Source: Acidimicrobiales bacterium (GTDB lineage: Bacteria > Actinomycetota > Acidimicrobiia > Acidimicrobiales > SZUA-35). From it: a stretch of 64,000 bases of DNA. Where the stretch lies: positions 1,724,511-1,788,510 of the forward strand of contig OZ245048.1 in NCBI GenBank assembly GCA_965224435.1. The letters run 5' to 3'. Under the pieces are notes generated by a model. That model saw only the letters and a program-made list of their open reading frames with translations, searched no databases and was not told the origin of the DNA. Positions 10,609 to 62,874 of this stretch are shown here, in pieces; position 1 is the stretch's first letter; each line of letters opens with the position of its first letter. A program made the position numbers and the translations under genes.

Positions 10609-11997
10609 ATGGTTTCGGTATCAGGTAATCTGGTTGCGTACGAACCGGGAGTAAACGTGGAACACACAGCAATTCGAGGGGACACCCAGGGCGACAGTCA
10701 AGGTGACAACGAACCTGGCAGTCATATTGGCTATCTCACCAATCAATACCCCAAAGCCAGCCACAGCTTTATTCGTCGCGAAATCCTGGCCCTTGAGGGC
10801 TTGGGCTGGAGAGTCAAGCGATACGCCATGCGTATCCCGATCGAAGAAATCGTTGACCCAGTCGATCGACAAGAGGCCGACAAGACCCGGTCCCTCGTTG
10901 ACGCGGGAATGCCGGCCATGGCGACTGCCCTGGCTCAGTTGGCGGCAAGACGGCCAGCGGCTTTCGCCCGAGCGCTTCGAGCCGCTACTCGATTGGCTCG
11001 CCGCTCCGATGTTGGCATGTCTCGACACCTTGTTTACCTCGCCGAGGCCGCCCTACTCGTTCAGTGGTGTGAGCAAGACGGGGTTACTCATCTTCACACT
11101 CATTTCGGTACCAACTCAGCCGAAGTGGCCTTGCTCAGCCACTATCTCGGTGGTCCGAGCTACAGCCTGACTATCCACGGACCAGAAGAGTTCGACCGAG
11201 CGCCGCTGCTTGGCATTGCCGAGAAAATTGGCCAGGCAAGATTCGTCTGCACCGTGAGTTCCTTTGGCCGAAGCCAAGCTTGTCGTCTGGTTCCAACCGA
11301 GCACTGGGATCGTATCCATGTTGTGCACTGCGGTCTTGATGACGAATGGTTCAGCGGAGACACCGTCCCAATCCCTGGGTCCAGCGTCCCAGCATCAAAT
11401 GGCTCTGAACATGGCGTCCCTGAACATGGCGTCCCTGAACAGAGTGTTTCGACCACCCGGCAGCTCGTTTGCGTGGCCAGACTGAGCGAGCAAAAGGGCC
11501 ATGGAATCCTTCTGGCTGCGCTAGCGAAGGTGGCGGAAAGCGGACGCGACTTCCACATGACCCTCGTCGGAGACGGAGAGCTTCGGCCAGAAGTCGAAGC
11601 ACAGATCCAATCCTCCAACCTTGGAGACAAGGTCACCATTACCGGGTGGGCGTCAGAAGACGAGGTGAAGGCCGCAATCAACGCATCAGTGGGCTTCGTT
11701 CTCCCCAGTTTTGCGGAAGGCCTTCCCGTTGTCATCATGGAGGCCCTCGCTGCCGGACGGCCAGTAATAAGCACCTATGTTGCCGGAATCCCCGAACTGG
11801 TTCGCCCCGGAGTCTCGGGTTGGCTTGTGCCTGCTGGTTCGGTTGATCTCCTGGTCGACGCGGTTTGTGAACTGCTGGATGCTCCCCTGGAACAGCTTGA
11901 GTCATTCGGTGCCGAGGGACGAAAAGCCGTGCATGAGCAGCACCGAGCAACAACCGAGGCGGCAAAGATTGCTGCCCTGTTTCCGCTAAGGAACTAA
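10609..11997 (+). CDS. GT4-family glycosyltransferase (WcaL-like)
   Basis: The N-terminus 'IGYLTNQYPKASHSFIRREILALE' and the C-terminal GT-B motif 'LPSFAEGLPVVIMEALAAGRPVISTYVAGIPELV' support the call. The start is uncertain, with a possible GTG near 10657. Confidence 0.8.
   Translation: MVSVSGNLVAYEPGVNVEHTAIRGDTQGDSQGDNEPGSHIGYLTNQYPKASHSFIRREILALEGLGWRVKRYAMRIPIEEIVDPVDRQEADKTRSLVDAGMPAMATALAQLAARRPAAFARALRAATRLARRSDVGMSRHLVYLAEAALLVQWCEQDGVTHLHTHFGTNSAEVALLSHYLGGPSYSLTIHGPEEFDRAPLLGIAEKIGQARFVCTVSSFGRSQACRLVPTEHWDRIHVVHCGLDDEWFSGDTVPIPGSSVPASNGSEHGVPEHGVPEQSVSTTRQLVCVARLSEQKGHGILLAALAKVAESGRDFHMTLVGDGELRPEVEAQIQSSNLGDKVTITGWASEDEVKAAINASVGFVLPSFAEGLPVVIMEALAAGRPVISTYVAGIPELVRPGVSGWLVPAGSVDLLVDAVCELLDAPLEQLESFGAEGRKAVHEQHRATTEAAKIAALFPLRN
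11407..11441 (+). repeat. 15-bp in-frame tandem duplication in the GT4 inter-domain linker
   Basis: 'gaacatggcgtccct' occurs twice and is followed by 'gaaca'. It encodes EHGVPEHGVPEQ. Confidence 0.9.
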
Positions 11998-12045
11998 CCG
12001 GCAAGCCGAAGCCCTGTGGACCTCCGATTCCACTAGACTTCGCCG

Positions 12046-14442
12046 ATGGATTTCACTGTGGCGCCAAGGGATTTCACCATGAGCAGAGGTGATCGGCGGA
12101 AGCGCTCGCAAATTCGGTTACGGACGAGAGGATCGGCCTGTTTCGTCGGGCTTTGTTGCGCCCTTCTGGTTCTGGGTGCTTGCACCTCCAATGGCGAAGG
12201 ATCTGGCGCTCCGGACGATGTTTCGCTTGCCACCGAACCTCCCGGGTTCCCCCAAGACGGCGTTGACAGCACGACCCCTTCTCCTGGCTCCGTAGCCGCC
12301 TCACTCAGCGAGGCCTACGAATTCACTGATCTCGAACTAGGCGGCGGCGGTTGGGTGACCGGAATGGTCATTCACCCGACAGAAGCCGATCTGATGTACG
12401 CCAGAACCGATGTTGGTGGGGCCTACCGCTGGGATCCGACGACCGAACATTGGATCCAACTGTTGTCCTTCGAAACAGTTCCAAACCCCGACCCTGGTGA
12501 TTGGCAGGTCTCATCCGTAGCCACCTCGCCATCGGACCCGGACCGTGCCTATATGGCGGTTGGCGACTCGACCAAGGATTCCGAGGGCCGCATTCTCATT
12601 AGCGACGATCGGGGAGCGACATGGCAAGATCATGGTCGCGGATTCACTATTGCTGGCAACGCCGAAGACAGGATTGGTGGTGAACGCCTAGCGGTTGACC
12701 CGACTGATCCTGACACTGTCTGGTTCGGAAGTCGAAGCGAAGGACTGCTTGTCTCGACTGATGGGTCAGCGACCTGGTCTCCGGTTCCGTCTGTCCCCAT
12801 TGTTGCCGCGGCCGAGGGTGAGAAACCAACGGGGGTGAAATGGGTGCTGGCCAGCGAGTTCGGAGTTTTTGTTGGTATCGCACATGACGGGGTCTATCAG
12901 GTCTCCGGAGAGCCATCTGCTCCTGGCGAAATCACCGCCGAGAAGCTTTGGGCCAGTGAAGGGATTCCCCTCGATGCGGAGATCGGCAGTGACGGTGTGC
13001 TCTGGGTAGCCGAACAGAAGCCGCCCTTTGTCTATCGATTTGACTCGTCCAGTCGCGAGCAACGCGACGTGACCCCGAACGGGGGCAAGAAGTTCGCTTC
13101 CGTCGCCATCGATCCCAACAACCCAAGTCGGGTCTTCATCGGACGTCAGAACATTTCGGACAGCGGTCTATGGAGAACCACCGATAGCGGCGAGAAGTGG
13201 AAGAAGGCGGCGGCGACGACCACCTGCGAGCAGGTCCCTTGGCTGGATGAGTATGACGACCGCTTGTTAAGCGCAGGCAGTATGGCCTTTGACCCAGCGG
13301 GTGAGCTGTGGTTTCCCGAGGGATTCGCCATGTGGCGAAGCACCGACCTTGATGACGGCGAAGTCACTTTCCAGTGCGCGACGCTTGGGATCGAAGAACT
13401 TGTGAGCAACGACGTTCTGGTCACCCCGGCTGGTTCCATTGTTAGCGCCCACTGGGACCGTGGAGCCTTTCGCCATACTGATGGCACACCACAAGGGGCG
13501 ATCCAAGGACCAGTCACCGAATTCAACTCGGTCTGGGATCTTGATTGGAGTCCTGCGGATCCAGATTTTGTGGTTGCAATCGTTGCCGATCACCGTTTCT
13601 GTTGCGAAGACTCATCCGATGCCTACGTCAGCAGCTTCTCCACCGATGGGGGACAGAGCTGGGAACGGTTTGGTTCCTACAAATCGGGCAACCATCCGTA
13701 CAAGCTCAGATTCGGCAATATCGCGGTCTCCGCAACTGACACCAACAATCTGGTGTGGCTCCCAACCTTCAATCTCCCGCCCCAGTTTTCGCGTGATCGC
13801 GGAACAACGTGGTCAGAAGTCATCTTGCCTGGAACCGAAGACATCCAGAAAGACGGGGTCAACCGTGGTGGCTCTCACACCACCTTTTTCCTGAACCGGA
13901 AGGTCCTCGCTGCGGATCGTGTCGCAGCGGACACGTTCTATCTTTATCAGGGAGACTTCGGGGTCTATCGATCCACAGACGGGGGTCAGTCTTGGGCGCT
14001 AATGGCCAGCGATGGTTTACCGATCGGGTCACCAATCGGCCATTTCCATAGCCAATTGCAGGCGGTTCCCGGTGAAGAAGGCCACCTTTTCTTCACCACC
14101 GGTCCGTTGGACCAGGGGGTTTGGCCCGCCTATGAAAGCGTCGATGGTGGAGACTCGTGGACCGAGGTCGACGGAACGGGCGAGGTAACAGCCATCGGAT
14201 TTGGATCTGCTTCCGAGGTTGGTGGGCCAGTCACTGTCTTCCTGGCTGGTGAACTCAATGGAGAGCGAGGCCTATGGAGGTCGATCGATGGTGCCGTAAC
14301 CTGGGGTCTGATTAGTGCGGCTCCTGGAGGAAATTACCTGCCGATTCAGGCCATAACCGGTCACCCAGACGAGTTCGGCACGGTTTTCGTGGCGTTTGGT
14401 GGAACAACAGTCAAAGTTGGAGCGTCTACACAAGGTGAATGA
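12046..14442 (+). CDS. BNR/Asp-box repeat lipoprotein (GH74/sialidase-like beta-propeller)
   Basis: Has a lipobox 'LLVLGAC' after a basic N-terminus, with a likely start at ATG 12079. There are at least 7 Asp-box motifs (SDDRGATW, STDGSATW, TTDSGEKW, STDGGQSW twice, SVDGGDSW, SIDGAVTW). Confidence 0.75.
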   Translation: MDFTVAPRDFTMSRGDRRKRSQIRLRTRGSACFVGLCCALLVLGACTSNGEGSGAPDDVSLATEPPGFPQDGVDSTTPSPGSVAASLSEAYEFTDLELGGGGWVTGMVIHPTEADLMYARTDVGGAYRWDPTTEHWIQLLSFETVPNPDPGDWQVSSVATSPSDPDRAYMAVGDSTKDSEGRILISDDRGATWQDHGRGFTIAGNAEDRIGGERLAVDPTDPDTVWFGSRSEGLLVSTDGSATWSPVPSVPIVAAAEGEKPTGVKWVLASEFGVFVGIAHDGVYQVSGEPSAPGEITAEKLWASEGIPLDAEIGSDGVLWVAEQKPPFVYRFDSSSREQRDVTPNGGKKFASVAIDPNNPSRVFIGRQNISDSGLWRTTDSGEKWKKAAATTTCEQVPWLDEYDDRLLSAGSMAFDPAGELWFPEGFAMWRSTDLDDGEVTFQCATLGIEELVSNDVLVTPAGSIVSAHWDRGAFRHTDGTPQGAIQGPVTEFNSVWDLDWSPADPDFVVAIVADHRFCCEDSSDAYVSSFSTDGGQSWERFGSYKSGNHPYKLRFGNIAVSATDTNNLVWLPTFNLPPQFSRDRGTTWSEVILPGTEDIQKDGVNRGGSHTTFFLNRKVLAADRVAADTFYLYQGDFGVYRSTDGGQSWALMASDGLPIGSPIGHFHSQLQAVPGEEGHLFFTTGPLDQGVWPAYESVDGGDSWTEVDGTGEVTAIGFGSASEVGGPVTVFLAGELNGERGLWRSIDGAVTWGLISAAPGGNYLPIQAITGHPDEFGTVFVAFGGTTVKVGASTQGE

Positions 14443-14529
14443 GCCGATTTGAGCGAGAAAATCTTTGCTGGATCTGCTGGATTCGTTGCCGCTGAGGCCG
14501 ACGAGTAGTAGTAACCCGGAGGGTAGAGA

Positions 14530-15531
14530 ATGCATTGGACCGTAGCGGCACCGTTCGTCACCAGTCCTACAAGTCAGTGGCTTGCCAGTTCGGTTAGCCA
14601 GGATCACCAACTCACCATTGTTCCCCGCGTCGGTGAACAGGTCAGTTGGCATGACAAGAAATCGCCTGTGACCAGTCCGGCTGAGTGGATCCAGTTCATG
14701 CGCCAGGCCCATCGGGCCGTTTCGCGGACCTCCGGTGGAGTCATCACCGTCTTTCCACAGCTCGCATCCATGGTTGGTGCTCAGAAGCAGCTGCGCCGCA
14801 AGAACGACATGCCCATCGTGAGCTGGTTCTTCAATACTTCGACCGACTCTGCCATCCGCATTGTTCCCGCCCGGCTATCCCTGCGAGCCGTCGACAAGTT
14901 CGTCGTGCATTCCAGTCGCGAGATCGAGGCCTATGCCAGCCAGCTAGCCATCGACCCTGGACGATTCGAGTACGTTCCCCTCCAGTACGGAGGCGACATT
15001 GATGACTCCCCGCTCGAAGAAGAGAAGCCCTTCATCTTCGCCACGGGTTCGGGACACCGTGACTATGCCACCTTCTTTGACGCAGTGGCAAAGACGGGGC
15101 ATCGCACGATCGTTCTGGCATCGGAGCACGCTCTGGCCAATACAACACCGCCGCCCAACGTTGAGATCTTGGAGCAACTTCCAAAGCCTGAGATTCGAAA
15201 GATGATTCGCCGGGCTCGCATCAATGTTGTGCCAATGAGCACCAACGGTCTGACCGCGGGGCTCGTAACCATCGTCGATGCTTTCTGCCACGGCCGTGGC
15301 CTGGTAGCCACTGCTCGACCCGGTGTTGAGGACTATCTTCTTGACAGCGAGAACTCGCTTCTGGTTCCGCCAAGTGATGCGGGGGCGATGGCAGAGGCTC
15401 TCGAAGCCATGTGGGGTGATGACATCCTGCGTCAGCAGCTAAACAAGGGCGCGGCCGCTTTTGCCGAAGCTAATTGCACGGACGCGGCCGCCGGTCGTCG
15501 CCTAAACGAAATCCTCGACTCTCTCTCGTAG
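14530..15531 (+). CDS. GT-B fold glycosyltransferase (GT1/GT4-like)
   Basis: The C-terminal half 'NVVPMSTNGLTAGLVTIVDAFCHGRGLVATARPGVEDYLLDSENSLLVPPSD' matches the nucleotide-sugar binding region of GT1/GT4 enzymes. Confidence 0.65.
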   Translation: MHWTVAAPFVTSPTSQWLASSVSQDHQLTIVPRVGEQVSWHDKKSPVTSPAEWIQFMRQAHRAVSRTSGGVITVFPQLASMVGAQKQLRRKNDMPIVSWFFNTSTDSAIRIVPARLSLRAVDKFVVHSSREIEAYASQLAIDPGRFEYVPLQYGGDIDDSPLEEEKPFIFATGSGHRDYATFFDAVAKTGHRTIVLASEHALANTTPPPNVEILEQLPKPEIRKMIRRARINVVPMSTNGLTAGLVTIVDAFCHGRGLVATARPGVEDYLLDSENSLLVPPSDAGAMAEALEAMWGDDILRQQLNKGAAAFAEANCTDAAAGRRLNEILDSLS

Positions 15532-15599
15532 GTCAACGGTTCACTTTCCGCTTTCGAAATGAACGGCTCCGTCATGAAGACTCCGATCGCTCACCCATT

Positions 15600-16517
15600 A
15601 TGAAGACCCCAATTGCTCTCTACGTCTGCACTCATCAACGCAATGATGAGCTTCAGCGTCTGCTCGACTCGGTTGTCGTTGCCGCAAATGAGGTGATGGA
15701 TCGTGTTGACGTCGCCGTTGTGGTGGTTGATGACAACCCCGATGGTCGGGCTGAGTCTGTTGTCGAAGCCTTCGAGCACAACTTCTCCCTCGGCCTCCAC
15801 TACCGCCTCAGTGGGAAACAGAACATCGCGATCGCCCGAAATATTGGTTTCGAAGCGGCCATGGAACTTGGTGACTGGGTACTCATGACCGATGACGACA
15901 TTGTCATCCCAGCCGATTGGTTTGCTCAGCACCTTGCATTACAAGACAGGACCGGTGCCGATGCCACGACCGGCCCGGCGCTCTTAACCTTTGGGCACGG
16001 AGGCGATTGGATCCGGGAGCAGCCATTTGATCTGGTTGGCCTTCTGGATTACGAAGAAGAGTCAATGCCTCCGGAGTGCTCAACCGGAAACTCTATGGTT
16101 CGGTCCGCATTTTTTGTCGAGCATCCCGAGATCCGCTTTGATCCTGGTCTCGGAATTGCTGGTGGCGAAGACATGGTGTTCTACCGGGGGGCTATTGCGG
16201 CAGGCATGGTGCCGCGATTCTCCAAGAAGGTGGCGGTCTATGAGATCGAACCAGCCAGTCGCTCAACCTATCGATATCAGCTCAGTCGCTCCCTCTGGAT
16301 GGGCAATACCGAGTTCGAAACCAACCTGCGTAGTGGTCAAGCAAGTCGCCTGCGCCTATTCCTTCGGGCGAGCAAACGTGCCCTTGGCGGTCTGAGCCGC
16401 CCGGCCCGTCGTGCTAGCAGGGGCCAGCCGCCCCAGTTTCGCTACGCCGGAGTACTTATTGTGCAAGGAATTGGTATGGGCATTGGCCAGTTCGGCATTG
16501 TCTTGGACCACCGGTAG
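15600..16517 (+). CDS. GT2-family glycosyltransferase
   Basis: Contains 'IALYVCTHQRNDELQRLLDSV', 'VVVVDDNPDG' and a DXD motif in 'LMTDDDIV'. I prefer ATG 15600 over the listed 15474 because the latter overlaps the upstream gene. Confidence 0.8.
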   Translation: MKTPIALYVCTHQRNDELQRLLDSVVVAANEVMDRVDVAVVVVDDNPDGRAESVVEAFEHNFSLGLHYRLSGKQNIAIARNIGFEAAMELGDWVLMTDDDIVIPADWFAQHLALQDRTGADATTGPALLTFGHGGDWIREQPFDLVGLLDYEEESMPPECSTGNSMVRSAFFVEHPEIRFDPGLGIAGGEDMVFYRGAIAAGMVPRFSKKVAVYEIEPASRSTYRYQLSRSLWMGNTEFETNLRSGQASRLRLFLRASKRALGGLSRPARRASRGQPPQFRYAGVLIVQGIGMGIGQFGIVLDHR

Positions 16518-16668
16518 TGATGACTGCGACTGGTTCTGGCCTACGCCACTCACGGGTTCAGCTAGGCCACCTACTAGGTCATAGGGCCTATTGCCTTGGG
16601 CAGAGTATTTTCCATTGGAATCCTCCCCGCCTTCAACGCTACGCTGGAGCGGTGGATTGGGAGTTTTG

Positions 16669-17487
16669 ATGGATATCCGAGCGGTTGTTGGTGCGGCCAG
16701 AGTCAAGGCCGAGCGAAAGGTTGGCGAGACAGTGGCGTCGGTGAGCCGTCGCCTTTCAGGGTCTTCAGAACAACCCCCGGCCAAGACACTCTTCGTGATT
16801 GCCCACGCCCGGTCCGGCTCGACGTTGCTCACCCACCTTCTCGGCGCTCACGATGACATTTTGTCCGTCGGTGAGCATCACGTCAGCTATAGCAAGGATT
16901 CTGACTTGCGCCGGTTGCGCGATCGCAGCGCGTTTATGGCCAATGATCTCAAGGCCCGGCCGATCTATGTCGTTGACAAGATCGTGTACAACGAGCACAC
17001 CATCAGTGATGACCTCCTGCGTGACTCCTCGATCAGGTTCGTGTTCTTGCTGCGACGGCCAGAAGGCACGCTGCCCAGCGTTGGCAAGATGTTCGGCCAG
17101 GCCGACATTGGTCGGCAGCTGGCCTACTACCGTCGGCGTCTCGACGAGATGGTCACCATCGCCAAGAAGGTGGGGGACCCGACCAGGTCGGCCTTCATGA
17201 CCTATGAGCAGATCACGGGCCAGCCCGACGCGACTCTGTCCTACCTCAGCGGCTTTCTTGATCTCGATTCGCCCCTGAATAAGGACTATGACGTCAGCCG
17301 CACGACGGGCCGTCAGGCCTGGGGTGATCCGTCCGAGCGTATCTTCTCTGGCACCATCGATCTGCGCCGCGGTGATTCTGACCCGCTACCAGTTGATATC
17401 GCAGTTGAGGCTGAGGCCATTCACGCCTTCGCCCTGTTTGAATTGGCGAAGCAATCTGCAGCAAATCCCCTGGTTAGCGACTCCTAA
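16669..17487 (+). CDS. sulfotransferase-family protein
   Basis: Has the 5'-PSB loop 'AHARSGSTLL' and the 3'-PB motif 'FLLRRPEGTLPS'. SD 'gggag' lies upstream of ATG 16669 (the listed ORF starts at 16591). Confidence 0.8.
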   Translation: MDIRAVVGAARVKAERKVGETVASVSRRLSGSSEQPPAKTLFVIAHARSGSTLLTHLLGAHDDILSVGEHHVSYSKDSDLRRLRDRSAFMANDLKARPIYVVDKIVYNEHTISDDLLRDSSIRFVFLLRRPEGTLPSVGKMFGQADIGRQLAYYRRRLDEMVTIAKKVGDPTRSAFMTYEQITGQPDATLSYLSGFLDLDSPLNKDYDVSRTTGRQAWGDPSERIFSGTIDLRRGDSDPLPVDIAVEAEAIHAFALFELAKQSAANPLVSDS

Positions 17488-18810: not shown

Positions 18811-18824
18811 GCGACCAGAAACGA

Positions 18825-18842
18825 GGTGAGATCGATCTCCCC
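18825..18842. terminator. imperfect palindrome between convergent genes (possible bidirectional hairpin)
   Basis: 'ggtGAGATCGATCTCccc' has a perfect 12-nt core palindrome at 18828-18839, located in the 31-nt gap between convergent genes. There is no U-tract. Confidence 0.2.
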
Positions 18843-27697: not shown

Positions 27698-27705
27698 GAA
27701 TCTGC

Positions 27706-52489: not shown

Positions 52490-53125
52490 ATGGCAAACTT
52501 GCGTTTTGCTCGAAGAATCCATGACTGGAATCGTCAGCGGAAATGGCTGCTCTTTCAGGAGCGATGCATCTCAGGCGAGAACCAGACGATTCTAGACGTT
52601 GGATTCGCCGCCGCCGCTGGCCCGGATGGTTACCAGAACACGCTCGAACATTCGATTGAAAACCTTTCGCGTGTTACAGGTTTGAGCCTGGACCCGGTTC
52701 CTGAGATCAGTCCGTTTCCGGGCATGACGATGATCCAGTACGGAGGCGGCGTTTTCCCGTTTTCCGATGGCGAGTTCGAGCTGTGTTGGTCGAACGCTGT
52801 GCTCGAGCACGTTGGCACCGACACGCAGATGATCGAGTTTCTTCGCGAAATAGCCCGAGTCGGCCGCCACAGCTTTGTGACCACTCCCAATCGGTGGTTT
52901 CCAGTAGAACCCCACACCAAGCTGCCTCTGGTCCATTTTCTACCGAAGTCGGTCTTCGACAAGATACTGAGAAAGACCGGGAAGTCCTGGGCTGCAGGTT
53001 CCTATATGGACCTGCTCGGTGAGAAGCGTTTGCGACAGTTGTTAGAAGACGCGGACATCCGTGACTACGAGATGTTCAAGAATCGTGTTGGCCCGTTCAC
53101 CATGGACTTTGTTGTCATCTTCTAA
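52490..53125 (+). CDS. class I SAM-dependent methyltransferase
   Basis: Contains 'ILDVGFAAAAG' (motif I-like) and 'CWSNAVLEHVGTDTQMIEFLREIARVGRHSFVTTPN', typical of Methyltransf_11/23-type enzymes. Confidence 0.7.
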   Translation: MANLRFARRIHDWNRQRKWLLFQERCISGENQTILDVGFAAAAGPDGYQNTLEHSIENLSRVTGLSLDPVPEISPFPGMTMIQYGGGVFPFSDGEFELCWSNAVLEHVGTDTQMIEFLREIARVGRHSFVTTPNRWFPVEPHTKLPLVHFLPKSVFDKILRKTGKSWAAGSYMDLLGEKRLRQLLEDADIRDYEMFKNRVGPFTMDFVVIF

Positions 53126-55825: not shown

Positions 55826-56842
55826 CTAGCGATACACAGCCAGATGGCGGCGAATGTTTTGTTGCCAGTCAAACTCGGGCACAGGCGTCTCGGTCCTGTC
55901 ATTCTGGGCCCACTTGAGTATTTCTGGCCAGTCGCGATCCTCGTTCCGCTCAGCGACACAAAATACCCATTCCTCTCCAAGTGAGTCTCTAGCCTGCCGT
56001 GCCTGAGCTGTGTCGGCGGAGATGACTGGAGTTCCAAGAGGGACTGATGCGGGTATGACTCCGGAGTTGAGGGCACCGCCTTGCAGGGCAAGAGATCCAT
56101 CTGCGCTGCTAACCAATTCGGCGAGCTCGACATCAGGGACATAGCGGGCGACCATAGTCGCACCCTCGAGTGAAGCAACCCGGCGGCGAAGCTCCTCGGC
56201 GTAGGCCTGATTCCCGACTCGTCCAACGAACTGCAGAGTGACAGCACCGTCATTAAGTAGTGGTTCAAGAGCATCTAGAGTCGCGAGTTGTTCTTTGTAC
56301 GGATCGATCGTCCCGAACTGGATCAATCGAGGAACCCCGCTCTGGGCTTCCGTTGTGGGTAGAACGCCATTTGAAGAGGCGGACTCGAGAGCCAGTGAGC
56401 CAAGTGGTATTTGGTGGAATGCAACTCCAGAGAGGCGCGGGTAGAGCGAGCGAAGAGGCTGGACATGTTCAGACGAGGTGACGATTACTCCGGTCAGGAG
56501 CCTCTGCACCCACGAAAGAACGATTCGCTGAGCCCAGGCGAATTCGGTTTTGTGTGGGCGGTCGTTGTGAGCGGTCCAAACTACTTGCCTACGCAGCACG
56601 GTCAGAATTGACAAGATGACGAATGTGTTTGCAATCTTGCCGAGACGAACCAGCGGGCTTGGGTGAGAGATGAGGTGCTCGGGCCAGTGGATATGAACCA
56701 CCGCCCGGCGGCTCCGGATAACAGATCCCACCGTCAGAAACTGCACGTTTGCGCCTGACGAGCGAAGTGCATTTGACCAACGCCCAACATAGCTGTTCTC
56801 GCCGAAGAGGGGCCTCGGGTGAGCCAGAACCGTGATCTTCAT
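55826..56842 (-). CDS. probable GT-B fold glycosyltransferase
   Basis: The N-terminus 'MKITVLAHP...IHWPEHL' and the C-terminal segment 'GGALNSGVIPASVPLGTPVIS' resemble GT1-type enzymes. The motif support is weak. Confidence 0.5.
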   Translation of the reverse strand: MKITVLAHPRPLFGENSYVGRWSNALRSSGANVQFLTVGSVIRSRRAVVHIHWPEHLISHPSPLVRLGKIANTFVILSILTVLRRQVVWTAHNDRPHKTEFAWAQRIVLSWVQRLLTGVIVTSSEHVQPLRSLYPRLSGVAFHQIPLGSLALESASSNGVLPTTEAQSGVPRLIQFGTIDPYKEQLATLDALEPLLNDGAVTLQFVGRVGNQAYAEELRRRVASLEGATMVARYVPDVELAELVSSADGSLALQGGALNSGVIPASVPLGTPVISADTAQARQARDSLGEEWVFCVAERNEDRDWPEILKWAQNDRTETPVPEFDWQQNIRRHLAVYR

Positions 56843-56990: not shown

Positions 56991-58727
56991 TCAGCGAGCC
57001 GCTCGCCGGAAGACTAGGAAGCCGCTCAACGATCCTGCCATGAGCAAGAGGAGGACCAAGTGATGGGAGGACTTCCCTGATCGCGATGCTGGGTCATTGA
57101 AGCCCAATTGTTCGGGTGCGGCGTTGTCGGTATCTGAGCTAAATTCGTTGATGGACACGCCGGTCTTGGAGATCTCGAGTTCGGATTCAAGGATGCTGAT
57201 TGTTGGCAGCGGATCCGGTTGCTGGATGCCTGGTGTGTGGTCGGCCTGCACCGATCGATTAGCCGCAGCGGGTCCATCCCCGGCCTGGCCAGCCGCAGCC
57301 ATTTCCGTTGGAGTGAAACTCTGCTGCTCGGCGATGGACTGAGGAGATGCTGTTGGTGAGCCGGCGGAGTGGCCACCCTGCGCTGGAGAATTCGGTTGGG
57401 ATGCCTTGCCTGGCAGCGTTGTCGCTGGCTTCGACTCAGGTGTGGTCGTCGACGGAGTCCGACCCGCTGGAGTCTGGGGAGTCGAGGTCGGCGATACCAC
57501 GGCTGGAGTAGTAGTTGGGGTCGGAGCTGGTGTTGGTTTCGGTGCCGGTTGCTGGATGGGTGCCCCACCCAGACTGGCAACCAGGCTGTCTCGAAGTTGG
57601 ATGACATTTGCACCCGGATTGTCACCCGAAGGCCTTGGTGACGAACCCAAGGCGTTTTCGGCATCGCCAGCGGTCAAGTTGCTGGATAGTTGAGGCTGAG
57701 CCGGATTGGGATCAGTCCAGTGCCCAATCGCATCTCGGCCGGTTTGGAAGACGGCATTGCTTCGCAGTGAAACGGTCTTGTTGGAGGACGCAAAATTGCC
57801 GTCCATCAAAATGCCATGGTGCTCGGTTCCCCAAATGACGTTTGCCTCAACTGTCGATGATGCGCTCAGCGATATGGCATTGCCGTCAGTCCAACGGGTA
57901 TTGGTCGAGATGTTCCAAAGGATGTTTCCGCGAATGAGGACGTTTGGATCGCGGTAGGACCGGATTCCGATGCCGACCACGACAGCACCACTGGTGTTGG
58001 TGTTGATGTCGTGAACCAAGTTCCCTTCGATCCGCACGTTGTACACCGATTGCTTGATGTCGATTGCCTCAGATGTCGTGGCGGAAATGGTGTTGCGTAA
58101 GATGCGAATGTCATGGGTGTCATCGTCGTTCAGGCCGCTACCGGTGCCGATATAGATTCCCTCGCCGTAGTGAGCGTACTGTCCGCCTCTGTTGCCGGTG
58201 TCAGAGATGTGCGAGTCAGCAATGGTCACATCCGATGAGTATCGGTGGACATGGATTCCTTCCTGACCGGTATCAGAGACGTTCAGCCTGAGCAATGAGA
58301 TGCCGCTTGAGCCCTCAACCTTGACACCCCAAAGAGATCTTGACAGTGCGAGATCTTCAACGGAGATACGCTGGCTATCAAGGATGGCCACAGCAGCAGA
58401 GCGTTCATAGCGACCGTCCGAGACAGCGACACCGGCCTCGCCGATGATGCGGAGGTCAGTTCGATTCTGAACAATGAATGATTGATAGGAGCCAGCGGAA
58501 ATCTGGATGGTCGAACCAGCCGGAGCAAGGTCAACGGCCCGTTGGATTTCTCGCACAGCCTCGTTTGATGAGCTTCCAGTCTTGCTGTCATCACCATTTG
58601 GGCTGACGAACAGCGTCGTGCCAGACAAGCTTCCGGAGGCGTCCGCAGCAGCAAGGCCGGGTCCGGCGACAAGAGCCGTGAGTAGTGCAAGCGTTGCACA
58701 AAGAGGAAGAAGTCGAAAGTGTCGCAC
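56991..58727 (-). CDS. right-handed parallel beta-helix repeat exoprotein with Pro/Thr-rich linker and C-terminal TM anchor
   Basis: Has a signal peptide 'LLPLCATLALLTALVAGPGLAAADA'. The rungs 'IADSHISDTG', 'ILRNTISATTSEAIDIK', 'IEGNLVHDI', 'IRGNILWNI' and 'VEANVIWGTEHHGILMD' are collinear with those of 53122..54447. A linker 'PAPKPTPAPTPTTTPAVVSPTSTPQTP' and the terminal 'HHLVLLLLMAGSLSGFLVFRRAAR' follow. Confidence 0.7.
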   Translation of the reverse strand: MRHFRLLPLCATLALLTALVAGPGLAAADASGSLSGTTLFVSPNGDDSKTGSSSNEAVREIQRAVDLAPAGSTIQISAGSYQSFIVQNRTDLRIIGEAGVAVSDGRYERSAAVAILDSQRISVEDLALSRSLWGVKVEGSSGISLLRLNVSDTGQEGIHVHRYSSDVTIADSHISDTGNRGGQYAHYGEGIYIGTGSGLNDDDTHDIRILRNTISATTSEAIDIKQSVYNVRIEGNLVHDINTNTSGAVVVGIGIRSYRDPNVLIRGNILWNISTNTRWTDGNAISLSASSTVEANVIWGTEHHGILMDGNFASSNKTVSLRSNAVFQTGRDAIGHWTDPNPAQPQLSSNLTAGDAENALGSSPRPSGDNPGANVIQLRDSLVASLGGAPIQQPAPKPTPAPTPTTTPAVVSPTSTPQTPAGRTPSTTTPESKPATTLPGKASQPNSPAQGGHSAGSPTASPQSIAEQQSFTPTEMAAAGQAGDGPAAANRSVQADHTPGIQQPDPLPTISILESELEISKTGVSINEFSSDTDNAAPEQLGFNDPASRSGKSSHHLVLLLLMAGSLSGFLVFRRAAR

Positions 58728-58824
58728 GGCAAATCTACGGCGCGTTTATTGTGAAGGTTGAGAAGAATTACCCAGACTTACTTGATCCGTCCCTCCCCGA
58801 GCCGACTGGTTTAGGCTTCCCTTG

Positions 58825-60594
58825 ATGCAGGAACCATCCTCGGAAGAACCTCGCCCCGGCCTGGTTACAACTAGCTTCAAGAGATGGTTGCTGTTCACAT
58901 TTCTCGTGTGGCTTGCGCTTGCTAGTGCGACCTTGGTGAAGGCTCAGAGAGAGGCCCGGGCCGGTGAAGTAGCGTTGCGATCAGTGGCCGACTTGTCAGA
59001 TCCAACGGCTATTGATCTGGATCAGGTGGCTCATTCACTGCGAGTGGGCCAAATAAACCTTGAGTCAGCCGAGGGCAGGCTCAACTCTTCGATCCTGTGG
59101 CCTCTGCGCCCACTCCCATTTGTTGGCCGTCAATTCTCCTCGACACGTGCCCTTGTTGGCACAGCTCAAGATCTCACCGAGGTGGTGCAACCGCTCATTG
59201 CCGATGTGCAGGCAGCCCGAACTGATCCCAACGGTCTTGACCGGATCGCCTTCCTTCGCCGGGTGGCCAACCAGCTTGGCGATTTGGAACAGGTTATCGA
59301 TGGTGCTGATCTTGGCCCAGAGGACGGCCTCATCGGGCCCTTGGCTGAGGGTCGGGTTGAGATGGCGACACAACTGGCTGAGCTCGCTGATCGTGGAGCG
59401 GCCTATCGAGTGGTGACTGATGGTCTCGCCTCGTTTCTTGAGGAAGGCGACTACCTCCTACTCGGTTCCAACAATTCCGAGATGCGACTCGGATCAGGCA
59501 TGCACCTCTCAGTTGGTCGGTTGACAACGAGTGACGGTCGACTTGACCTGGTGGACCTCACACCTAGTGCCGACTTGGCGCCAGTCGTTGGCGCGGACCT
59601 CATCGACGACGATGTGGCAGCAAGATGGGGCTTCCTCGACATCGAGACGGATTTTCGGAAGCTGGGATATTCAGCCAGATTTGATGAGTTCGTGGCCCCG
59701 CAAGCACTGGAGATGTGGCAAGCCAAAACCGGGGAATCCTTGGATGGCGTGATCCTCCTGGACCCATTCGTCCTTGAAGCACTATCGGGAGTGCTTGGAG
59801 ACGTGACGGTTGAAGGCGAAACCTATGACCGGGCAACCTTGCTGGCCTACCTGCTTCGCGATCAATACGACGCAGTCGGAGCCGATGCCACCGAGGAAGA
59901 AAACGAGGTCCGACGAGACCGTCTGGCTCTGCTTGCCGGCGCCATGAGTGAATCATTCGATACTGCGTCATGGGACCCGCTCGACCTGATCCAAGCCCTG
60001 GCCCCAGTTGCTCGGGGGAGACACCTCATGGTGTACAGCAACGATGAATCGGAGCAGCGCGGCTGGGAGGAAATGGGTGTTGCTGGCCAGATCAGTGGCC
60101 ACGAAACTGGAGTATTTTGGCTAAACACGGGCGCTAGCAAGTTGGACTCGTTCCTTTCCGTTGATGTTGAAGTCACTTCTGAGGTGATTGAGGATCGGCG
60201 GAAATTGTCCTTCGTTGTTCAGACAACAAACACGGCTGATGCCAGCATCTCCCGCTACGTGCTCGGCCCGTGGGAGACGCTCGGAATCCCTAAAGCTGGC
60301 GCCTACCGCGGCCGGTTTGCCTTCTATGCACCAAGCGATGCGGCCGACGTAGAGTTCGCCCCCAAACGACCCTTGGATGTGCAAGGACCCGACGGGCGAC
60401 TGTGGCTTGTGTCCAGCGAGCAGATGGTTGTGTTGCCTGGCCGCAGCACAACCATCCGCTTTGAGTACACGGTCCCTCTCGAGCGGTCAACTATCGAGAT
60501 TCTGCCGTCAGGCCGCTTTCCGTTGGTGACATGGAATTGGGACGGCCAAGAGTTTGATGATGCCGAGCGGCGCTCGATCTCGCTTGATGGCTAG
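58825..60594 (+). CDS. DUF4012-like membrane-anchored protein
   Basis: Has an N-terminal TM 'WLLFTFLVWLALASATLV'. Its size and segments such as 'LLLGSNNSEMRLGSGMHLSVGRLTTSDGRLDLVDL' resemble DUF4012 proteins found in actinobacterial glycan loci. This assignment is from memory only. Confidence 0.5.
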   Translation: MQEPSSEEPRPGLVTTSFKRWLLFTFLVWLALASATLVKAQREARAGEVALRSVADLSDPTAIDLDQVAHSLRVGQINLESAEGRLNSSILWPLRPLPFVGRQFSSTRALVGTAQDLTEVVQPLIADVQAARTDPNGLDRIAFLRRVANQLGDLEQVIDGADLGPEDGLIGPLAEGRVEMATQLAELADRGAAYRVVTDGLASFLEEGDYLLLGSNNSEMRLGSGMHLSVGRLTTSDGRLDLVDLTPSADLAPVVGADLIDDDVAARWGFLDIETDFRKLGYSARFDEFVAPQALEMWQAKTGESLDGVILLDPFVLEALSGVLGDVTVEGETYDRATLLAYLLRDQYDAVGADATEEENEVRRDRLALLAGAMSESFDTASWDPLDLIQALAPVARGRHLMVYSNDESEQRGWEEMGVAGQISGHETGVFWLNTGASKLDSFLSVDVEVTSEVIEDRRKLSFVVQTTNTADASISRYVLGPWETLGIPKAGAYRGRFAFYAPSDAADVEFAPKRPLDVQGPDGRLWLVSSEQMVVLPGRSTTIRFEYTVPLERSTIEILPSGRFPLVTWNWDGQEFDDAERRSISLDG

Positions 60595-61940
60595 AGGTTG
60601 ATGGCTGAGATGCTTTGGCCGAGATCGTGCGTCAAGCGCTCATCAGGCGTTCTCAGATCGATCTCGTCAAGCTGATCAGGGACTCGCTTGGCCGCGACTG
60701 GAGAAGTCAATACGACGGCAACACAGATCGCTAACCAAGCAAAGGCCGGAGCTCGAAGCACAGCTTCGCTGATGCCGTCGACAAGGACGAAGGTCAGCAA
60801 AGCTAACGCTAGCGGTTCGGTCATCGATGCCGAGCGAACTAAACCGAGGGCCATCGCCCCAACAAGGAGGGCCGCTCCAATCACACCGGTGGTGAGGGCT
60901 AGATGAAGGGCCAGGTTGTGGGTGTGTTGGGCCCCCCAACCGATCGGTAGCCCTGCGACAACAGAACGGTCGTTTCCGAGCCCGATCCCAATAATGGGTG
61001 AGTCCTTGATCTCGTCAATGACTTGTGGCCAGAGGGTCGAGCGCCCATTGAACGACTGGACCTCGCCTTCAGAAAACGAGGTGGCTTGGGAGAATGCAGT
61101 TGAGTTCCCGATCCCAATAGATCCTGAAAGGGCGAGGGACAGAAGGAGCAGAAGGAGCCCGAGAGCAAGGGCGGCGATCCGACGGCGAGAGACGTGGACG
61201 ACCAGGATTGTGAGAGCGATAGCGAGCCCGAATGCTCCAGTTCGGCTCATGGTGGCTAGGACAAGCAATAGACCCAGGACAGAAGACGCGGCAACAGCGA
61301 GCCGCTGAATTCCAAAGCACTCCCGAGCAAACCAGAGGGAACCGATGCAACCAAGGGCAGCAATCCGAGCAAACTGGTTGGACTCGAGCGACGCGAGGGC
61401 AAGACTGTCGGCCACAAATGGAGACGCGGTCGAGGTCTGGACCAGGATTGCACCGATGAGCAAATGGACCAAGAAGCCTAGCCAGAGCGTCCGAGTAGCT
61501 GCGATCCGGCCACCGTGTCCAACGATGGCGTAGGTGGCACCCATGACCAAGGCAAACCCTCCAGCAGTGGTCAATGAGTGTTGCCAATTGCTGCCTATGG
61601 AGGAAATGACCGACCACAGAACCCAGCTGGTCAAGAAACCTAGCTGGGGCGAAGAATAGAGATTAGGGCGGCGCAGCGAACCGCGAATGTAACTGGCAAC
61701 CAGGGAGCCGAGTAGAGCGATCGCGGTGCCGGCCGACAATATCCGCAAGCTGATTGGATCGCCGAAACGAATCTGGTCAACAGCGGCGACGGCAACAAAG
61801 ACGGCCAGCAACGCCTCTTGCCCGGTTGGAATCAGTAGAGACCGGCGCTCGCTTGTGCTTGAGCTTGCCGGGTCCGGGGGCCTGGTTCCTGGCTTCACGG
61901 GTGCTCGGACTGAGCCCCTCTCGACTTGCTCAGTCGTCAC
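60591..61940 (-). CDS. O-antigen ligase/polymerase family (Wzy_C) membrane protein
   Basis: A polytopic protein containing 'FNGRSTLWPQVIDEIKDSPIIGIGLGN...AQHTHNLALHLALTTGVIG'. Confidence 0.75.
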   Translation of the reverse strand: MTTEQVERGSVRAPVKPGTRPPDPASSSTSERRSLLIPTGQEALLAVFVAVAAVDQIRFGDPISLRILSAGTAIALLGSLVASYIRGSLRRPNLYSSPQLGFLTSWVLWSVISSIGSNWQHSLTTAGGFALVMGATYAIVGHGGRIAATRTLWLGFLVHLLIGAILVQTSTASPFVADSLALASLESNQFARIAALGCIGSLWFARECFGIQRLAVAASSVLGLLLVLATMSRTGAFGLAIALTILVVHVSRRRIAALALGLLLLLLSLALSGSIGIGNSTAFSQATSFSEGEVQSFNGRSTLWPQVIDEIKDSPIIGIGLGNDRSVVAGLPIGWGAQHTHNLALHLALTTGVIGAALLVGAMALGLVRSASMTEPLALALLTFVLVDGISEAVLRAPAFAWLAICVAVVLTSPVAAKRVPDQLDEIDLRTPDERLTHDLGQSISAINL

Positions 61941-62874
61941 GAGGCTGAGCGGTAGTGAAGGACAACATGAGCAAGGTCAAAACTGCTGCTCCAACCCCGG
62001 CTGCTACCGACGCCAAGAGGGACTGCCGACTGGGAGAATGGATCTGAGCTGGTTGCAGGAAGATGTAGGCCGAACCAGTCGAAGCAATCTCGCTCTGGAG
62101 CTCTTGCTGTTCGGACCGTCGAGCGTTCAGCTGGTCGCTCACGGCGTGAAGATCTGAGCGAAGGCGAATCTGAGCAGACTCTTCAGTCGCCGCCGACAAT
62201 TCAGCTTCCCTGGTGATCTGTTGCTCTTCAAGTTTAGCAATGGCGGATTCAAGGGGAGCAAGGTCAACGCTCAGCCCGTGGCGGCGATCAGCCTGGGAGT
62301 GTTGCATCAACACAGCTGCTCCGAAAGCAGCCAACTCTTCTGCGGCTTCAGAGGTCTTTGCTGTTGCTACCAGTTGGAGCACCGAGAGATCAGAGGATGG
62401 ATCAACTCGAAGTGAGATCGCGTCGTCGGGGTTTGGGAGGGCTGCTGCTGCCTCGCTGAGAACGGCTGGGTCGGCCAAGATGGTGTCGGCCAGGTCATGG
62501 GAGGCGCGAAAGAAGGGCCAATGGATCTCGTTCTCATCAAGGATGAGTGGGGCGACAGCCTCGGGGTCGCTGGCGTTGATTCGGTTGATGGAGAATGCGG
62601 CGATGCCAACGGCCACTCCCACCAGGAGAGCGACGAGAGATAATGCGCGGCCAGTGAGTCGGGTGGTTGGCGTCTTTGGGGGTTTCTCAGACTGCTTGGG
62701 CACGGTGGAAGTCACTACCCGTTGCGGGTCAGTTCGCCTGGCCTGGGCATGGGTTTTCTCTTGAACCTTGACCGGAGACTTGCCCGCGGTTGCCTGCTTG
62801 CCCGCGGTTGCCTGCTTGCCCGCCGGCTGTTTGGTCCTGGGGCCTGTCGCCGCGCTGTGTCGTTCTTTAGTCAT
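61930..62874 (-). CDS. Wzz-like chain-length determinant without kinase domain
   Basis: Has a basic N-terminal tail with KQATAG repeats and a TM 'ALSLVALLVGVAVGIAAFSI'. An ectodomain with coiled-coil character and a C-terminal TM 'LLASVAAGVGAAVLTLLMLSF' follow. It overlaps the downstream Wzy-like gene by 11 nt. Confidence 0.6.
   Translation of the reverse strand: MTKERHSAATGPRTKQPAGKQATAGKQATAGKSPVKVQEKTHAQARRTDPQRVVTSTVPKQSEKPPKTPTTRLTGRALSLVALLVGVAVGIAAFSINRINASDPEAVAPLILDENEIHWPFFRASHDLADTILADPAVLSEAAAALPNPDDAISLRVDPSSDLSVLQLVATAKTSEAAEELAAFGAAVLMQHSQADRRHGLSVDLAPLESAIAKLEEQQITREAELSAATEESAQIRLRSDLHAVSDQLNARRSEQQELQSEIASTGSAYIFLQPAQIHSPSRQSLLASVAAGVGAAVLTLLMLSFTTAQPRDD
62779..62826 (-). 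repeat. 18-bp in-frame tandem repeat (2 copies plus a partial third)
   Basis: On the plus strand 'cttgcccgcggttgcctg' occurs twice and is followed by 'cttgcccgccgg'. It encodes AGKQATAGKQATAGK. Confidence 0.9.

Follow-up and report, generated by a model that had tools for sequence, protein, structure and literature searches.

Downstream of dnaE, the chromosome of an uncultured member of the Acidimicrobiales (Actinomycetota) carries a genuine glycan island, located at a clade-specific variable site 3′ of this gene and probably composed of several Wzx/Wzy-type polysaccharide pathways arranged end to end. The stretch analyzed, here called the window, comprises 64,000 nt of Acidimicrobiales bacterium (assembly GCA_965224435.1, contig OZ245048.1, positions 1,724,511–1,788,510), and window-identical proteins are recorded on a contig of 4,370,637 bp. 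Within the window, 39 open reading frames (ORFs) at positions 10609–62874 (~52 kb) serve nearly all in glycan synthesis; they are assigned to modules A (10.6–31.2 kb), B (31.3–43.4 kb), C (43.6–56.8 kb) and D (57.0–62.9 kb), and genes are named by their first position. The presence of several pathways is supported by three observations: module B is separable, the polymerase/co-polymerase pairs of B and C are old paralogues, and each block brings distinct sugar precursors. An earlier sequence-only reading had proposed three to four parallel modules, of which three assembly lines are found, while the fourth block (57–62.9 kb) is without a flippase or glycosyltransferase (GT) of its own. Between the two options which that reading had offered, end-to-end pathways or one complex pathway, the former is favored here; the module borders had been left undefined.

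The same reading had counted three MOP flippases, four Wzy_C-family proteins, four Wzz-type polysaccharide co-polymerases (PCPs) and two initiating phosphoglycosyl transferases (PGTs). These numbers hold in hidden Markov model (HMM) searches, partly by way of profile and structure matches. The core proteins, including fusions of a PCP with a bacterial tyrosine kinase (BY-kinase), are the following (TM, transmembrane):

17488–18810, plus strand, Wzy_C polymerase-type membrane protein, module A (Wzy_C 67.8 bits; ~10 TM segments)
18842–20176, minus strand, MOP/Wzx-type flippase, module A (no Pfam match; BLASTP to 54565; 53% orthologue in the metagenome-assembled genome (MAG) CALHCB01, L002)
22460–24412, plus strand, PCP-2 of Wzc fold with BY-pseudokinase domain and disordered Ser/Lys-rich tail, module A (AlphaFold2, Foldseek)
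29566–31248, plus strand, large polytopic PGT of WbaP/WcaJ type, module A (Bac_transf 218 bits; TIGR03025 358 bits, cutoff 296)
33524–34378, plus strand, small monotopic PGT, module B allele (Bac_transf 171 bits)
34409–35872, minus strand, divergent MOP flippase with in-frame heptad variable-number tandem repeat (VNTR), module B (homologue P0005, hhalign)
40268–41923, minus strand, PCP-2 Wzz and BY-kinase fusion, module B (TIGR01007 140 bits, cutoff 108; two TM segments)
41920–43383, minus strand, Wzy_C polymerase-type protein, module B (Wzy_C 55.4 bits; 37% identity to 50972)
49323–51011, plus strand, PCP-2 Wzz and BY-kinase fusion, module C (Wzz 28 bits, cutoff 25.5; TIGR01007 152 bits; start at 49359 in other gene calls)
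50972–52351, plus strand, Wzy_C polymerase-type protein, module C (Wzy_C 66.3 bits)
54565–55818, plus strand, Wzx flippase, module C (Polysacc_synt 44.1 bits, cutoff 28.2)
60591–61940, minus strand, divergent Wzy_C protein, polymerase or ligase, module D (Wzy_C 75.0 bits)
61930–62874, minus strand, short kinase-less PCP-like protein, module D (TM 78–96 and 286–304; hhalign; no HMM match)

All four Wzy_C proteins exceed the Pfam gathering threshold (31.7 bits). One flippase, 54565, is matched by Pfam directly, and the other two are recognized through profile homology: 18842 aligns with 54565 over its full length in BLASTP (23% identity, E 3e-16), and 34409, which by itself gives a weak sub-threshold MatE match in Pfam, has a homologue, P0005 (25% identity, 88% coverage, E 5e-13), that matches PF01943, PF01554, PF13440 and PF03023. 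In addition, the family profile of 34409 aligns with the profile of the other two flippases at an hhalign probability of 96.2% (E 2.4e-9, 364 columns). Two of the PCPs are Wzz and tyrosine kinase fusions, the third is a pseudokinase of Wzc fold and the fourth a short protein without a kinase domain. Both fusions, 40268 and 49323, contain intact Walker A (‘EGKS’), A′ (‘ADLRRP’) and B (‘DxPPV’) motifs as well as C-terminal Tyr tails (‘HSYYRN’ and ‘YSYAYV’), the motifs of a BY-kinase PCP-2, and active kinases are predicted. The short protein 61930 shows a TM–ectodomain–TM layout; its family profile matches the PCP alignment with an hhalign probability of 95.9% (E 6e-9), covering the N-terminal TM segment and the first ectodomain of that alignment, and a weak match to the Wzc ectodomain is seen (E 0.0015). 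It has 15 representative homologues among 1.84 billion proteins, and a Pfam scan of 16 members of its family returned coiled-coil noise only, so that its assignment as a PCP goes no further than hhalign and topology allow. For the glycosyltransferases, ~12 had been estimated and 10–11 are found (12–13 counting the PGTs): nine by Pfam (three GT4, five GT2, one WecG), one, 31259, by structure only, and the doubtful 55826. Only two PGTs stand against four polymerases, so that initiation has to be shared or supplied from elsewhere.

Comparison with related genomes revealed that sub-blocks of the island travel as units and that module B is present or absent as a block. In the MAG GCA_024280015.1, module A is found on contig L128, and the CDP-sugar block, the large PGT and the whole region corresponding to 31.3–42.7 kb on contig L126, which contains cassette B and is colinear with window positions 24675–42672 at ~80% nucleotide (nt) identity. 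Contig L127 keeps module A, the CDP-sugar block and the large PGT at 86–97% amino acid (aa) identity; there, B is replaced by 2.5 kb encoding a DRL paralogue and a small PGT, and the contig rejoins the window at 43686. In L129, the large PGT is followed by the small PGT, the epimerase (88%), WecG (80%) and a GT2, without B. The flanks of the missing cassette in L127 and L129 are 75–96% identical to the window at the aa level. Since 31259–43383 (~12 kb) is present in L126 and absent in L127 and L129, it is an accessory cassette. Its presence does not follow flank similarity, as the L127 flanks are nearer to the window than those of L126. The breakpoints fall within two genes, at the 3′ end of that for the large PGT and at the 5′ end of that for the epimerase, a pattern from which we infer homologous recombination between conserved flanks, similar to capsule switching. 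The small PGT 33524 is 87% identical at the aa level in L126, in which B is present, vs. 72% in L127 and 69% in L129, in which it is absent; in relatives without B the small PGT abuts module C, and in L127 and L129 the 43638 epimerase lies directly 3′ of it. The large PGT 29566 stays with module A in L126, L127 and L129. Because the CDP-sugar genes and the large PGT are kept with A in relatives, they were assigned to module A; placing the CDP-sugar block in module B was rejected, as it stays with A in relatives that are without B.

The Wzy/PCP-kinase pairs of modules B (41920/40268) and C (50972/49323) share 37% identity and are old paralogues, not recent copies. NCBIfam models assign a different set of sugar-precursor genes to each block. 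Of two metagenome scans, the one with the PCP-kinase 40268 gave no match, and the one with the dehydrogenase gave, apart from a single close fragment (L082), only loci that are distant and unrelated.

The site itself is bounded by two genes outside the island:

6997–10548, plus strand, dnaE, left boundary (DNA_pol3_alpha 309 bits; PHP, finger and HHH_6)
63306–63620, plus strand, small LPVTG sortase-substrate protein of 104 aa, right boundary (PF00746 Gram_pos_anchor 19.7 bits, cutoff 20; motif visible)

The dnaE product is 83% identical at the aa level to that of CALHCB01 and 60–76% identical to those of many other Acidimicrobiales/Acidimicrobiia MAGs, and 5′ of dnaE lie housekeeping genes for LspA, RluD, a phosphodiesterase, the proteasome activator Bpa and a CAP/DUF4214 protein. 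In the most closely related clade, dnaE is followed by a glycan locus whose content differs. In CALHCB01 the order after dnaE is acyltransferase, GT2, Wzx, sulfotransferase, sulfotransferase, Wzy and GT4. In L003 the content is GT2, GT4, epimerase, MocA-type oxidoreductase, WecG, GT2, a 22460-like PCP, a glucose-1-phosphate cytidylyltransferase and a kinase-PCP. In Acidimicrobiales with ≤70% dnaE identity no glycan locus is found there, and a homologue of 4986 lies directly 3′ of dnaE. This gene (4986–5738) encodes a 250-aa protein of unknown function, the homologue of which directly follows dnaE in most Acidimicrobiales (L005, L006, L078, L081 and others). It is located upstream of dnaE, by contrast, in the window and the genomes nearest to it, where the glycan locus fills the downstream site. 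Further upstream, at 2500–2595, a 19-nt tandem repeat (ATCCGCCATCACACGGTTC) with ~4 copies, perfect or nearly so, overlaps short alternative ORFs.

Inter-ORF gaps within the island do not exceed 431 bp and the coding strand switches 19 times, which implies at least ~20 transcription units. The GC content is even across the window (0.54–0.60), with no foreign-DNA signal seen. As the sequence-only reading had stated, neither tRNAs nor transposases or integrases separate the modules: a tRNA search of the window found none, an Rfam search of the window gave no match and hence no regulatory RNA, and no ORF carries a transposase or integrase domain by Pfam, the gaps of ≤431 bp being too small for one. 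Long direct or inverted repeats flanking the modules were not found in a repeat search; invertible promoters and mobility mediated by insertion sequences (IS) were dropped as explanations, as the module borders are without such repeats. The stated lack of a LytR-CpsA-Psr (LCP) ligase and a phosphotyrosine phosphatase is likewise borne out, since no ORF of the window has a Pfam match to LCP (PF03816), LMWPc or a PHP-type CpsB phosphatase. Within the window there are thus no genes for phosphatase partners of the two kinases or for LCP attachment; neither are a private PGT of module C or genes for the supply of 3′-phosphoadenosine-5′-phosphosulfate (PAPS) present there.

Several features had been overlooked by the sequence-only reading, i.e., the sulfotransferases, the GH74 and beta-helix enzymes, the CDP-6-deoxyhexose route, the ribofuranosyltransferase 31259 and the NDP-sugar dehydrogenase 46634. 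Many of them belong to module A, which contains, besides its core genes (PSB, phosphosulfate-binding; PB, phosphate-binding):

10609–11997, plus strand, GT4 glycosyltransferase (Glycos_transf_1 115 bits, Glyco_trans_1_4 121 bits)
12046–14442, plus strand, GH74-like beta-propeller glycoside hydrolase with N-terminal TM/signal (phmmer; BNR/Sortilin by Pfam; TM 29–47)
14530–15531, plus strand, GT4-type glycosyltransferase (Glyco_trans_1_4 40.5 bits; 95–97% aa identity in L127/L128)
15474–16517, plus strand, GT2 glycosyltransferase (Glycos_transf_2 55.7 bits; 57% orthologue 3′ of dnaE in CALHCB01)
16591–17487, plus strand, sulfotransferase 1 (Sulfotransfer_3 42 bits, cutoff 27; ‘ARSGST’ 5′-PSB-like motif)
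20173–21087, minus strand, sulfotransferase 2 (Sulfotransfer_3 62.8 bits, Sulfotransfer_1 46.8 bits; PAPS-binding-type motifs ‘GAMKAATSTL’ and ‘RHPIDRLVS’)
21471–22424, plus strand, sulfotransferase 3 (Sulfotransfer_3 122 bits; PDB matches to the sulfotransferases TPST2, CurM and StaL)
24570–25391, plus strand, glucose-1-phosphate cytidylyltransferase-like protein (TIGR02623 273 bits, cutoff 300; NTP_transferase)
25373–26329, plus strand, GT2 glycosyltransferase (Glycos_transf_2 61.9 bits)
26402–27787, minus strand, DRL_cat/SAF NAD(P) oxidoreductase, candidate 4-keto reductase (DRL_cat 181.5 bits; reductase role putative)
27706–28254, minus strand, RmlC-type NDP-4-keto-6-deoxyhexose 3,5-epimerase (TIGR01221 168 bits, cutoff 156)
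28251–29360, minus strand, CDP-glucose 4,6-dehydratase (TIGR02622 493 bits, cutoff 278)

By its predicted gene functions, module A is a complete Wzx/Wzy pathway with sulfation, comprising two GT4, two GT2, the large PGT, Wzx, Wzy, PCP and GH74. The three sulfotransferase genes surround the flippase and polymerase genes; all three proteins, predicted cytoplasmic PAPS-type enzymes, score above Pfam gathering, show 5′-PSB/3′-PB-type motifs and contain no TM segments (0/3), and they predict a sulfated glycan as product. The sulfation core GT2–Wzx–ST–ST–Wzy (ST, sulfotransferase) is kept 3′ of dnaE in CALHCB01 (34–57% aa identity) and also in L127 and L128. A route from CDP-glucose to a CDP-6-deoxyhexose is made up, according to NCBIfam models, of 24570, 28251, 27706 and 26402, and the product of module A is thus predicted to be a sulfated polymer containing 6-deoxyhexose. 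The GH74-like protein 12046 matches GH74 xyloglucanases/endoglucanases over its full length in phmmer (E 4e-66). In L127 (positions 1–1893), the GH74 gene is called in three pieces of 371, 227 and 178 aa, which suggests frameshifts, through a pseudogene or low-coverage assembly errors. A 30-nt inverted repeat (20027–20056/20155–20184; 83% complementarity, spacing 98 nt) is located where the flippase gene 18842–20176 overlaps, at its 5′ end, the upstream sulfotransferase gene.

The PCP of module A, 22460, has no Pfam match. In Foldseek, its AlphaFold2 model (predicted local distance difference test, pLDDT, 78.5 overall and >85 for the greater part of the folded region) matches E. coli Wzc over its full length (E 7e-20, ~620 columns), and its cytoplasmic domain matches CapAB with a target-normalized TM-score (TMt) of 0.82. 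Across 61 aligned homologues (30–92% identity, mostly Acidimicrobiales), T (42), A (12), S (4), V (2) or I (1), in no case K (0/61), takes the place of the Walker-A Lys, and Tyr is absent from the last 40 residues in 60 of the 61, the window protein included; the two hallmarks of an active BY-kinase, Walker-A Lys and Tyr-rich tail, are thus both missing from 22460. At the same time, the family keeps G345, R348, G351, T353–T354, the Walker A′ DxD and the Walker B Asp, and the Lys-less motif ‘G[TSA]QRxAG[TA]TT’ (‘GTQRxAGTTT’ in the window) is conserved across the 61 homologues, whose ORFs are intact and full-length. The retention of the altered motif down to 30% identity indicates purifying selection. 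From motifs and predicted structure, 22460 is a conserved fused PCP-2/BY-pseudokinase, putatively a non-kinase, and its family counts at least 61 members in the Acidimicrobiia. It ends in a disordered Ser/Lys-rich tail of 140 residues, the coding DNA of which contains 15-nt tandem repeats at 24169–24308.

BY-pseudokinases have been reported as functional in Myxococcus (EcpK) and Caulobacter (HfsB), both being stand-alone proteins, and SMc01795 represents a fused form in Gram-negatives (PMC12004946). Like the pseudokinase PCP-2 systems EcpK/EpsV and HfsB/HfsA, 22460 combines a Wzc fold with loss of the Walker-A Lys and the Tyr-rich tail, and like SMc01795-type variants its pseudokinase is fused to the PCP (PMC12004946). 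Unlike EcpK, which has no Walker motifs at all, the 22460 family retains the Walker A′/B acidic residues and a P-loop ‘QR’; 22460 further differs by the long disordered tail and by its occurrence in the Acidimicrobiia beside two active-type kinase-PCPs in one locus. BY-pseudokinase PCPs are therefore already described, and 22460 adds a member from a Gram-positive class, not a new kind.

Module B contains, besides its core genes (PRPP, phosphoribosyl pyrophosphate):

31259–33301, minus strand, CrpP-CriT-like HAD phosphatase and PRPP-dependent ribofuranosyl-5-phosphate transferase (AlphaFold2, Foldseek)
35993–37006, plus strand, GT2 glycosyltransferase (Glycos_transf_2 46.6 bits)
37077–38969, minus strand, right-handed beta-helix protein with N-terminal signal/TM and C-terminal TM anchor (Beta_helix 33 bits; TM 13–31 and 606–624)
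39168–40217, plus strand, GT2 glycosyltransferase (Glycos_transf_2 115.7 bits)

In 31259, Pfam sees only a weak ‘HAD’, and the AlphaFold2 model (pLDDT 93.2) matches Bcs3 of H. influenzae type b (8a0c/8a0m) in Foldseek (E 4e-19, ~655 columns, query-normalized TM-score, TMq, 0.65) as well as 7SHG, a polysaccharide ribofuranosyltransferase of Thermobacillus composti (E 2e-18). Bcs3 has the domain order CroT–CrpP–CriT–SH3b (PMC10299916). The order in 31259, an HAD domain followed by a PRTase-like CriT with helical bundles, matches Bcs3 residues 374–1036, so that the protein corresponds to the CrpP phosphatase and the CriT PRPP-dependent ribose-5-phosphate transferase. In HAD motif I, D48 is near-invariant and Asp+2 is absent, leaving the first Asp only, as in CrpP; the family-invariant R312-D313 may equal R679-D680 of CriT, as a candidate correspondence only. 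Four relatives carry a GT4 fusion (~1040 aa). Based on the structural model, 31259 is predicted to be a hidden glycosyltransferase, and β-ribofuranose is predicted in the product. While 31259 shares fold and order of the HAD phosphatase and the PRPP transferase with Bcs3 and 7SHG, it has neither a TagF-like CroT nor an SH3b domain, sequence identity is only ~15%, and it is part of a Wzx/Wzy cassette of a Gram-positive, whereas Bcs3 belongs to an ABC-transporter capsule locus. Module B is a predicted complete, compact accessory pathway for a ribofuranose-containing polymer. Its flippase gene 34409 contains an in-frame 21-nt tandem repeat (35111–35262) encoding the heptad QSADTTT in a central loop, with 5, 4 and 3 copies (487, 478 and 471 aa) in three near-identical assemblies; this may be a genuine VNTR or a repeat collapsed by short-read assembly.

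The remaining genes belong to modules C (first eight) and D (last two):

43638–44759, plus strand, NAD-dependent sugar epimerase/dehydratase (Epimerase 125 bits; 96% aa identity in L127, 88% in L129)
44692–45516, plus strand, WecG/TagA/CpsF-family glycosyltransferase (Glyco_tran_WecG 172.5 bits; TIGR00696 126 bits)
45513–46601, minus strand, GT2 glycosyltransferase (Glycos_transf_2 32.2 bits)
46634–47914, minus strand, NDP-sugar 6-dehydrogenase, nearest to UDP-ManNAc/UDP-GlcNAc dehydrogenases (TIGR03026 407 bits)
48044–49246, plus strand, GT4 glycosyltransferase (Glycos_transf_1 43.5 bits)
52490–53125, plus strand, putative S-adenosylmethionine (SAM) methyltransferase, weak (Methyltransf_11 23.2 bits, cutoff 21.2, over a short stretch; no NCBIfam match)
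53122–54447, minus strand, secreted beta-helix enzyme of lyase/hydrolase/epimerase type (Beta_helix 79.7 bits, NosD 39 bits)
55826–56842, minus strand, protein of doubtful function, possible GT (no Pfam/PDB match; weak NCBIfam Agl16, 22.8 bits)
56991–58727, minus strand, beta-helix enzyme with Pro/Thr-rich linker and C-terminal TM anchor (Beta_helix 48 bits; TM 9–27 and 555–573)
58822–60594, plus strand, DUF4012 membrane-anchored protein (DUF4012 82.9 bits)

Module C is complete except for a private PGT, and its predicted product is a polymer containing uronic acid, either teichuronic or capsular in type. The dehydrogenase 46634 scores 204–271 bits with UDP-ManNAc dehydrogenase models, under their cutoffs, and its gene lies near that of the WecG/TagA-family GT. 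The beta-helix proteins 37077, 53122 and 56991 all have signal sequences (3/3), and two of the three (37077 and 56991) have C-terminal TM anchors; in 56991, signal and anchor are joined by a long Pro/Thr/Ser-rich linker. The enzymes 56991 and 53122 of modules D and C are 42% identical, and 53122 shows a weak PDB match to the alginate lyase 6kfn (E 2e-4). Judged by fold family, the three could be lyases, hydrolases or C5-epimerases, and their topology suggests that 37077 and 56991 are surface-tethered glycan-processing enzymes. PDB sequence searches with 34409, 55826 and the DUF4012 protein gave nothing useful. In module D, in which all ORFs are intact, the 5′ part of 61930 contains a perfect 18-nt tandem repeat (62779–62823, 2.5 copies) encoding ‘AGKQAT’ in a disordered cytoplasmic N-terminus. 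Instead of a further pathway, the D genes may represent an accessory set conserved in actinobacteria, since DUF4012 beside a Wzz-type gene recurs in Bifidobacterium longum.

Taken together, a mechanism based on protein families can be outlined. A PGT would prime undecaprenyl phosphate, the repeat unit would be finished in the cytoplasm by GTs, the ribofuranosyl transferase and sulfotransferases, Wzx would flip it, and Wzy with a PCP would polymerize it outside, where surface-anchored GH74 and beta-helix enzymes may trim or release chains. The two PGTs would serve the four polymerases by shared initiation, and modules would be exchanged via recombination in conserved flanking genes, not mobile elements.

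Several points weigh against this interpretation. The organism is uncultured and the case is built on sequence and predicted structures; module C has no PGT of its own and module D neither flippase nor GT, so that the pathways do not separate fully and may in part depend on one another. Co-retention in relatives is the only basis for the border between A and the CDP-sugar block, genes for PAPS synthesis are not found in the window, positions 57.9–64 kb are backed by the window alone (the 38.1-kb contig described below reads to 57913), and polymerase cannot be told from ligase by Wzy_C sequence. The last point leads to an alternative that we consider unlikely, in which at least one Wzy_C protein, most likely 60591, is a WaaL/PglL-like ligase acting on a lipid, protein or wall acceptor and replacing LCP attachment. 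Wzy_C is common to polymerases, O-antigen ligases and O-oligosaccharyltransferases and its Pfam name is ‘O-Antigen ligase’; 60591 aligns with the other three Wzy_C proteins over a core of 79–165 aa only, whereas those three align over 300–390 aa, and it belongs to the module without flippase and GTs in a window without LCP. However, 60591 overlaps the PCP-like 61930 by 11 bp, the classic polymerase/co-polymerase pairing, LCP genes may sit elsewhere in the 4.37-Mb genome, and the acceptor is only hypothetical.

Clearly improbable is one unusually complex pathway, in which the 39 genes cooperate on a single elaborate polymer or block co-polymer whose different sub-units would be handled by the several flippases and polymerases. 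The genes are packed without separators, only two PGTs are present for four Wzy_C proteins, and modules C and D are incomplete; yet close relatives that retain A and C do without cassette B and the Wzx, Wzy, PCP and PGT that belong to it, the Wzy/PCP pairs with 37% identity are old, and precursor sets differ between blocks. Sharing of one PGT by separate polymers is well known from WecA, which serves both enterobacterial common antigen and O antigen. Even less credence is due to the view that the island is partly decaying redundancy with the kinase-dead 22460 and the orphan module D as unused remnants: 22460 has lost the Walker-A Lys and the Tyr tail and module D is incomplete, but BY-pseudokinases are functional in Myxococcus and Caulobacter (PMC12004946), the module D ORFs are all intact, and 22460 was rejected as a decayed gene because its altered motif is conserved in 61 homologues.

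Finally, independent assemblies bear on whether the locus is an assembly chimera of separate loci. Contigs of the NCBI assembly GCA_044240345.1 and the ENA assembly ERZ25083849 are ≥99.5% identical to and colinear with positions 3430–7033, 10173–21204 and 23820–57913; a 38.1-kb contig is colinear over its positions 1–34037 with window positions 23830–57913 (≥99.6%). L127, a 68.5-kb contig of a related organism (~85% nt identity), is colinear over 12550–31191 and bridges the gap at 21.2–23.8 kb, L125 joins dnaE to module A, and L126 spans 24.7–42.7 kb. Although the two short-read assemblies are both interrupted at ~23.82 kb, and one has an end at 21.2 kb, the break lies near the 15-nt tandem repeats encoding the low-complexity tail of 22460 and reflects an assembly-breaking repeat, not a biological junction, and since L125, L126, L127 and the 38.1-kb contig are colinear across the junctions, the chimera, which the sequence-only reading had named as an alternative, is effectively refuted for 10.2–57.9 kb.

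The island of end-to-end pathways can be compared with known systems. In Lactiplantibacillus plantarum WCFS1, the cps1-cps2-cps3 region of ~49 kb contains three adjacent clusters with transposases between them (PMC3539956). Both regions show adjacent Wzx/Wzy clusters in a strain-variable region in which not all gene sets are full; in the island, A and B are full and C is so except for its PGT. While the L. plantarum clusters are transposase-separated and largely co-directional operons, the island is without mobile-element genes or transposase/IS delimiters, has 19 strand switches and shared PGTs, and resides in an Acidimicrobiales host. For module A, the closest parallels in gene content are the xss/synechan cluster of Synechocystis, a Wzx/Wzy cluster shown to make a sulfated polysaccharide (PMC8205485), and wps-1 of Actinoplanes missouriensis (2026), whose sulfated polysaccharide is predicted and not experimentally verified (PMC13390465). 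Both are Wzx/Wzy clusters with at least two sulfotransferases, a glycoside hydrolase and a methyltransferase; unlike wps-1 and xss, module A has three sulfotransferases, GH74 instead of GH26, CDP-6-deoxyhexose genes and a pseudokinase PCP. The exopolysaccharide locus of B. longum 105-A shares the actinobacterial Wzx/Wzy system, a priming PGT, DUF4012 beside a Wzz-type gene (eps1 operon) and deoxyhexose precursor genes (PMC5412050). It spans 33 kb with a single Wzx and Wzy, many transposases/integrases and dTDP-rhamnose, unlike the island, which uses a CDP-sugar pathway.

The island, which contains several individually noteworthy genes, is thus a large, unusually dense and transposase-free case of an arrangement already known, here in a class that has been little studied, and current models are extended to this class, not overturned. 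Acidimicrobiia, actinobacteria that are abundant in water and soil and for the most part uncultured, have essentially uncharacterized envelopes, and the island gives a parts list of their surface glycans. Sulfation, as predicted here, is rare in bacterial polysaccharides and in actinomycetes has so far been proposed only for wps-1, and ribofuranose incorporation is predicted via the recently discovered PRPP route. A fused PCP-pseudokinase beside active-type kinase-PCPs offers a natural comparison of phosphorylation-dependent and -independent chain-length control, and cassette exchange resembling capsule switching occurs without mobile elements in an environmental lineage. Beyond this, we tentatively raise the possibility, on balance still doubtful, that module A makes a sulfated 6-deoxyhexose envelope polysaccharide under phosphorylation-independent control by the Wzc-like pseudokinase, and that the island acts as a combinatorial system of two PGTs and four polymerase/co-polymerase pairs with cassettes swapped by flank recombination. 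If true, no sulfated-polysaccharide pathway would precede this one in Acidimicrobiia, and few with a defined gene set would do so in any bacterium outside the cyanobacteria, while swapping of flank-recombined cassettes would diversify the cell surface of these bacteria.

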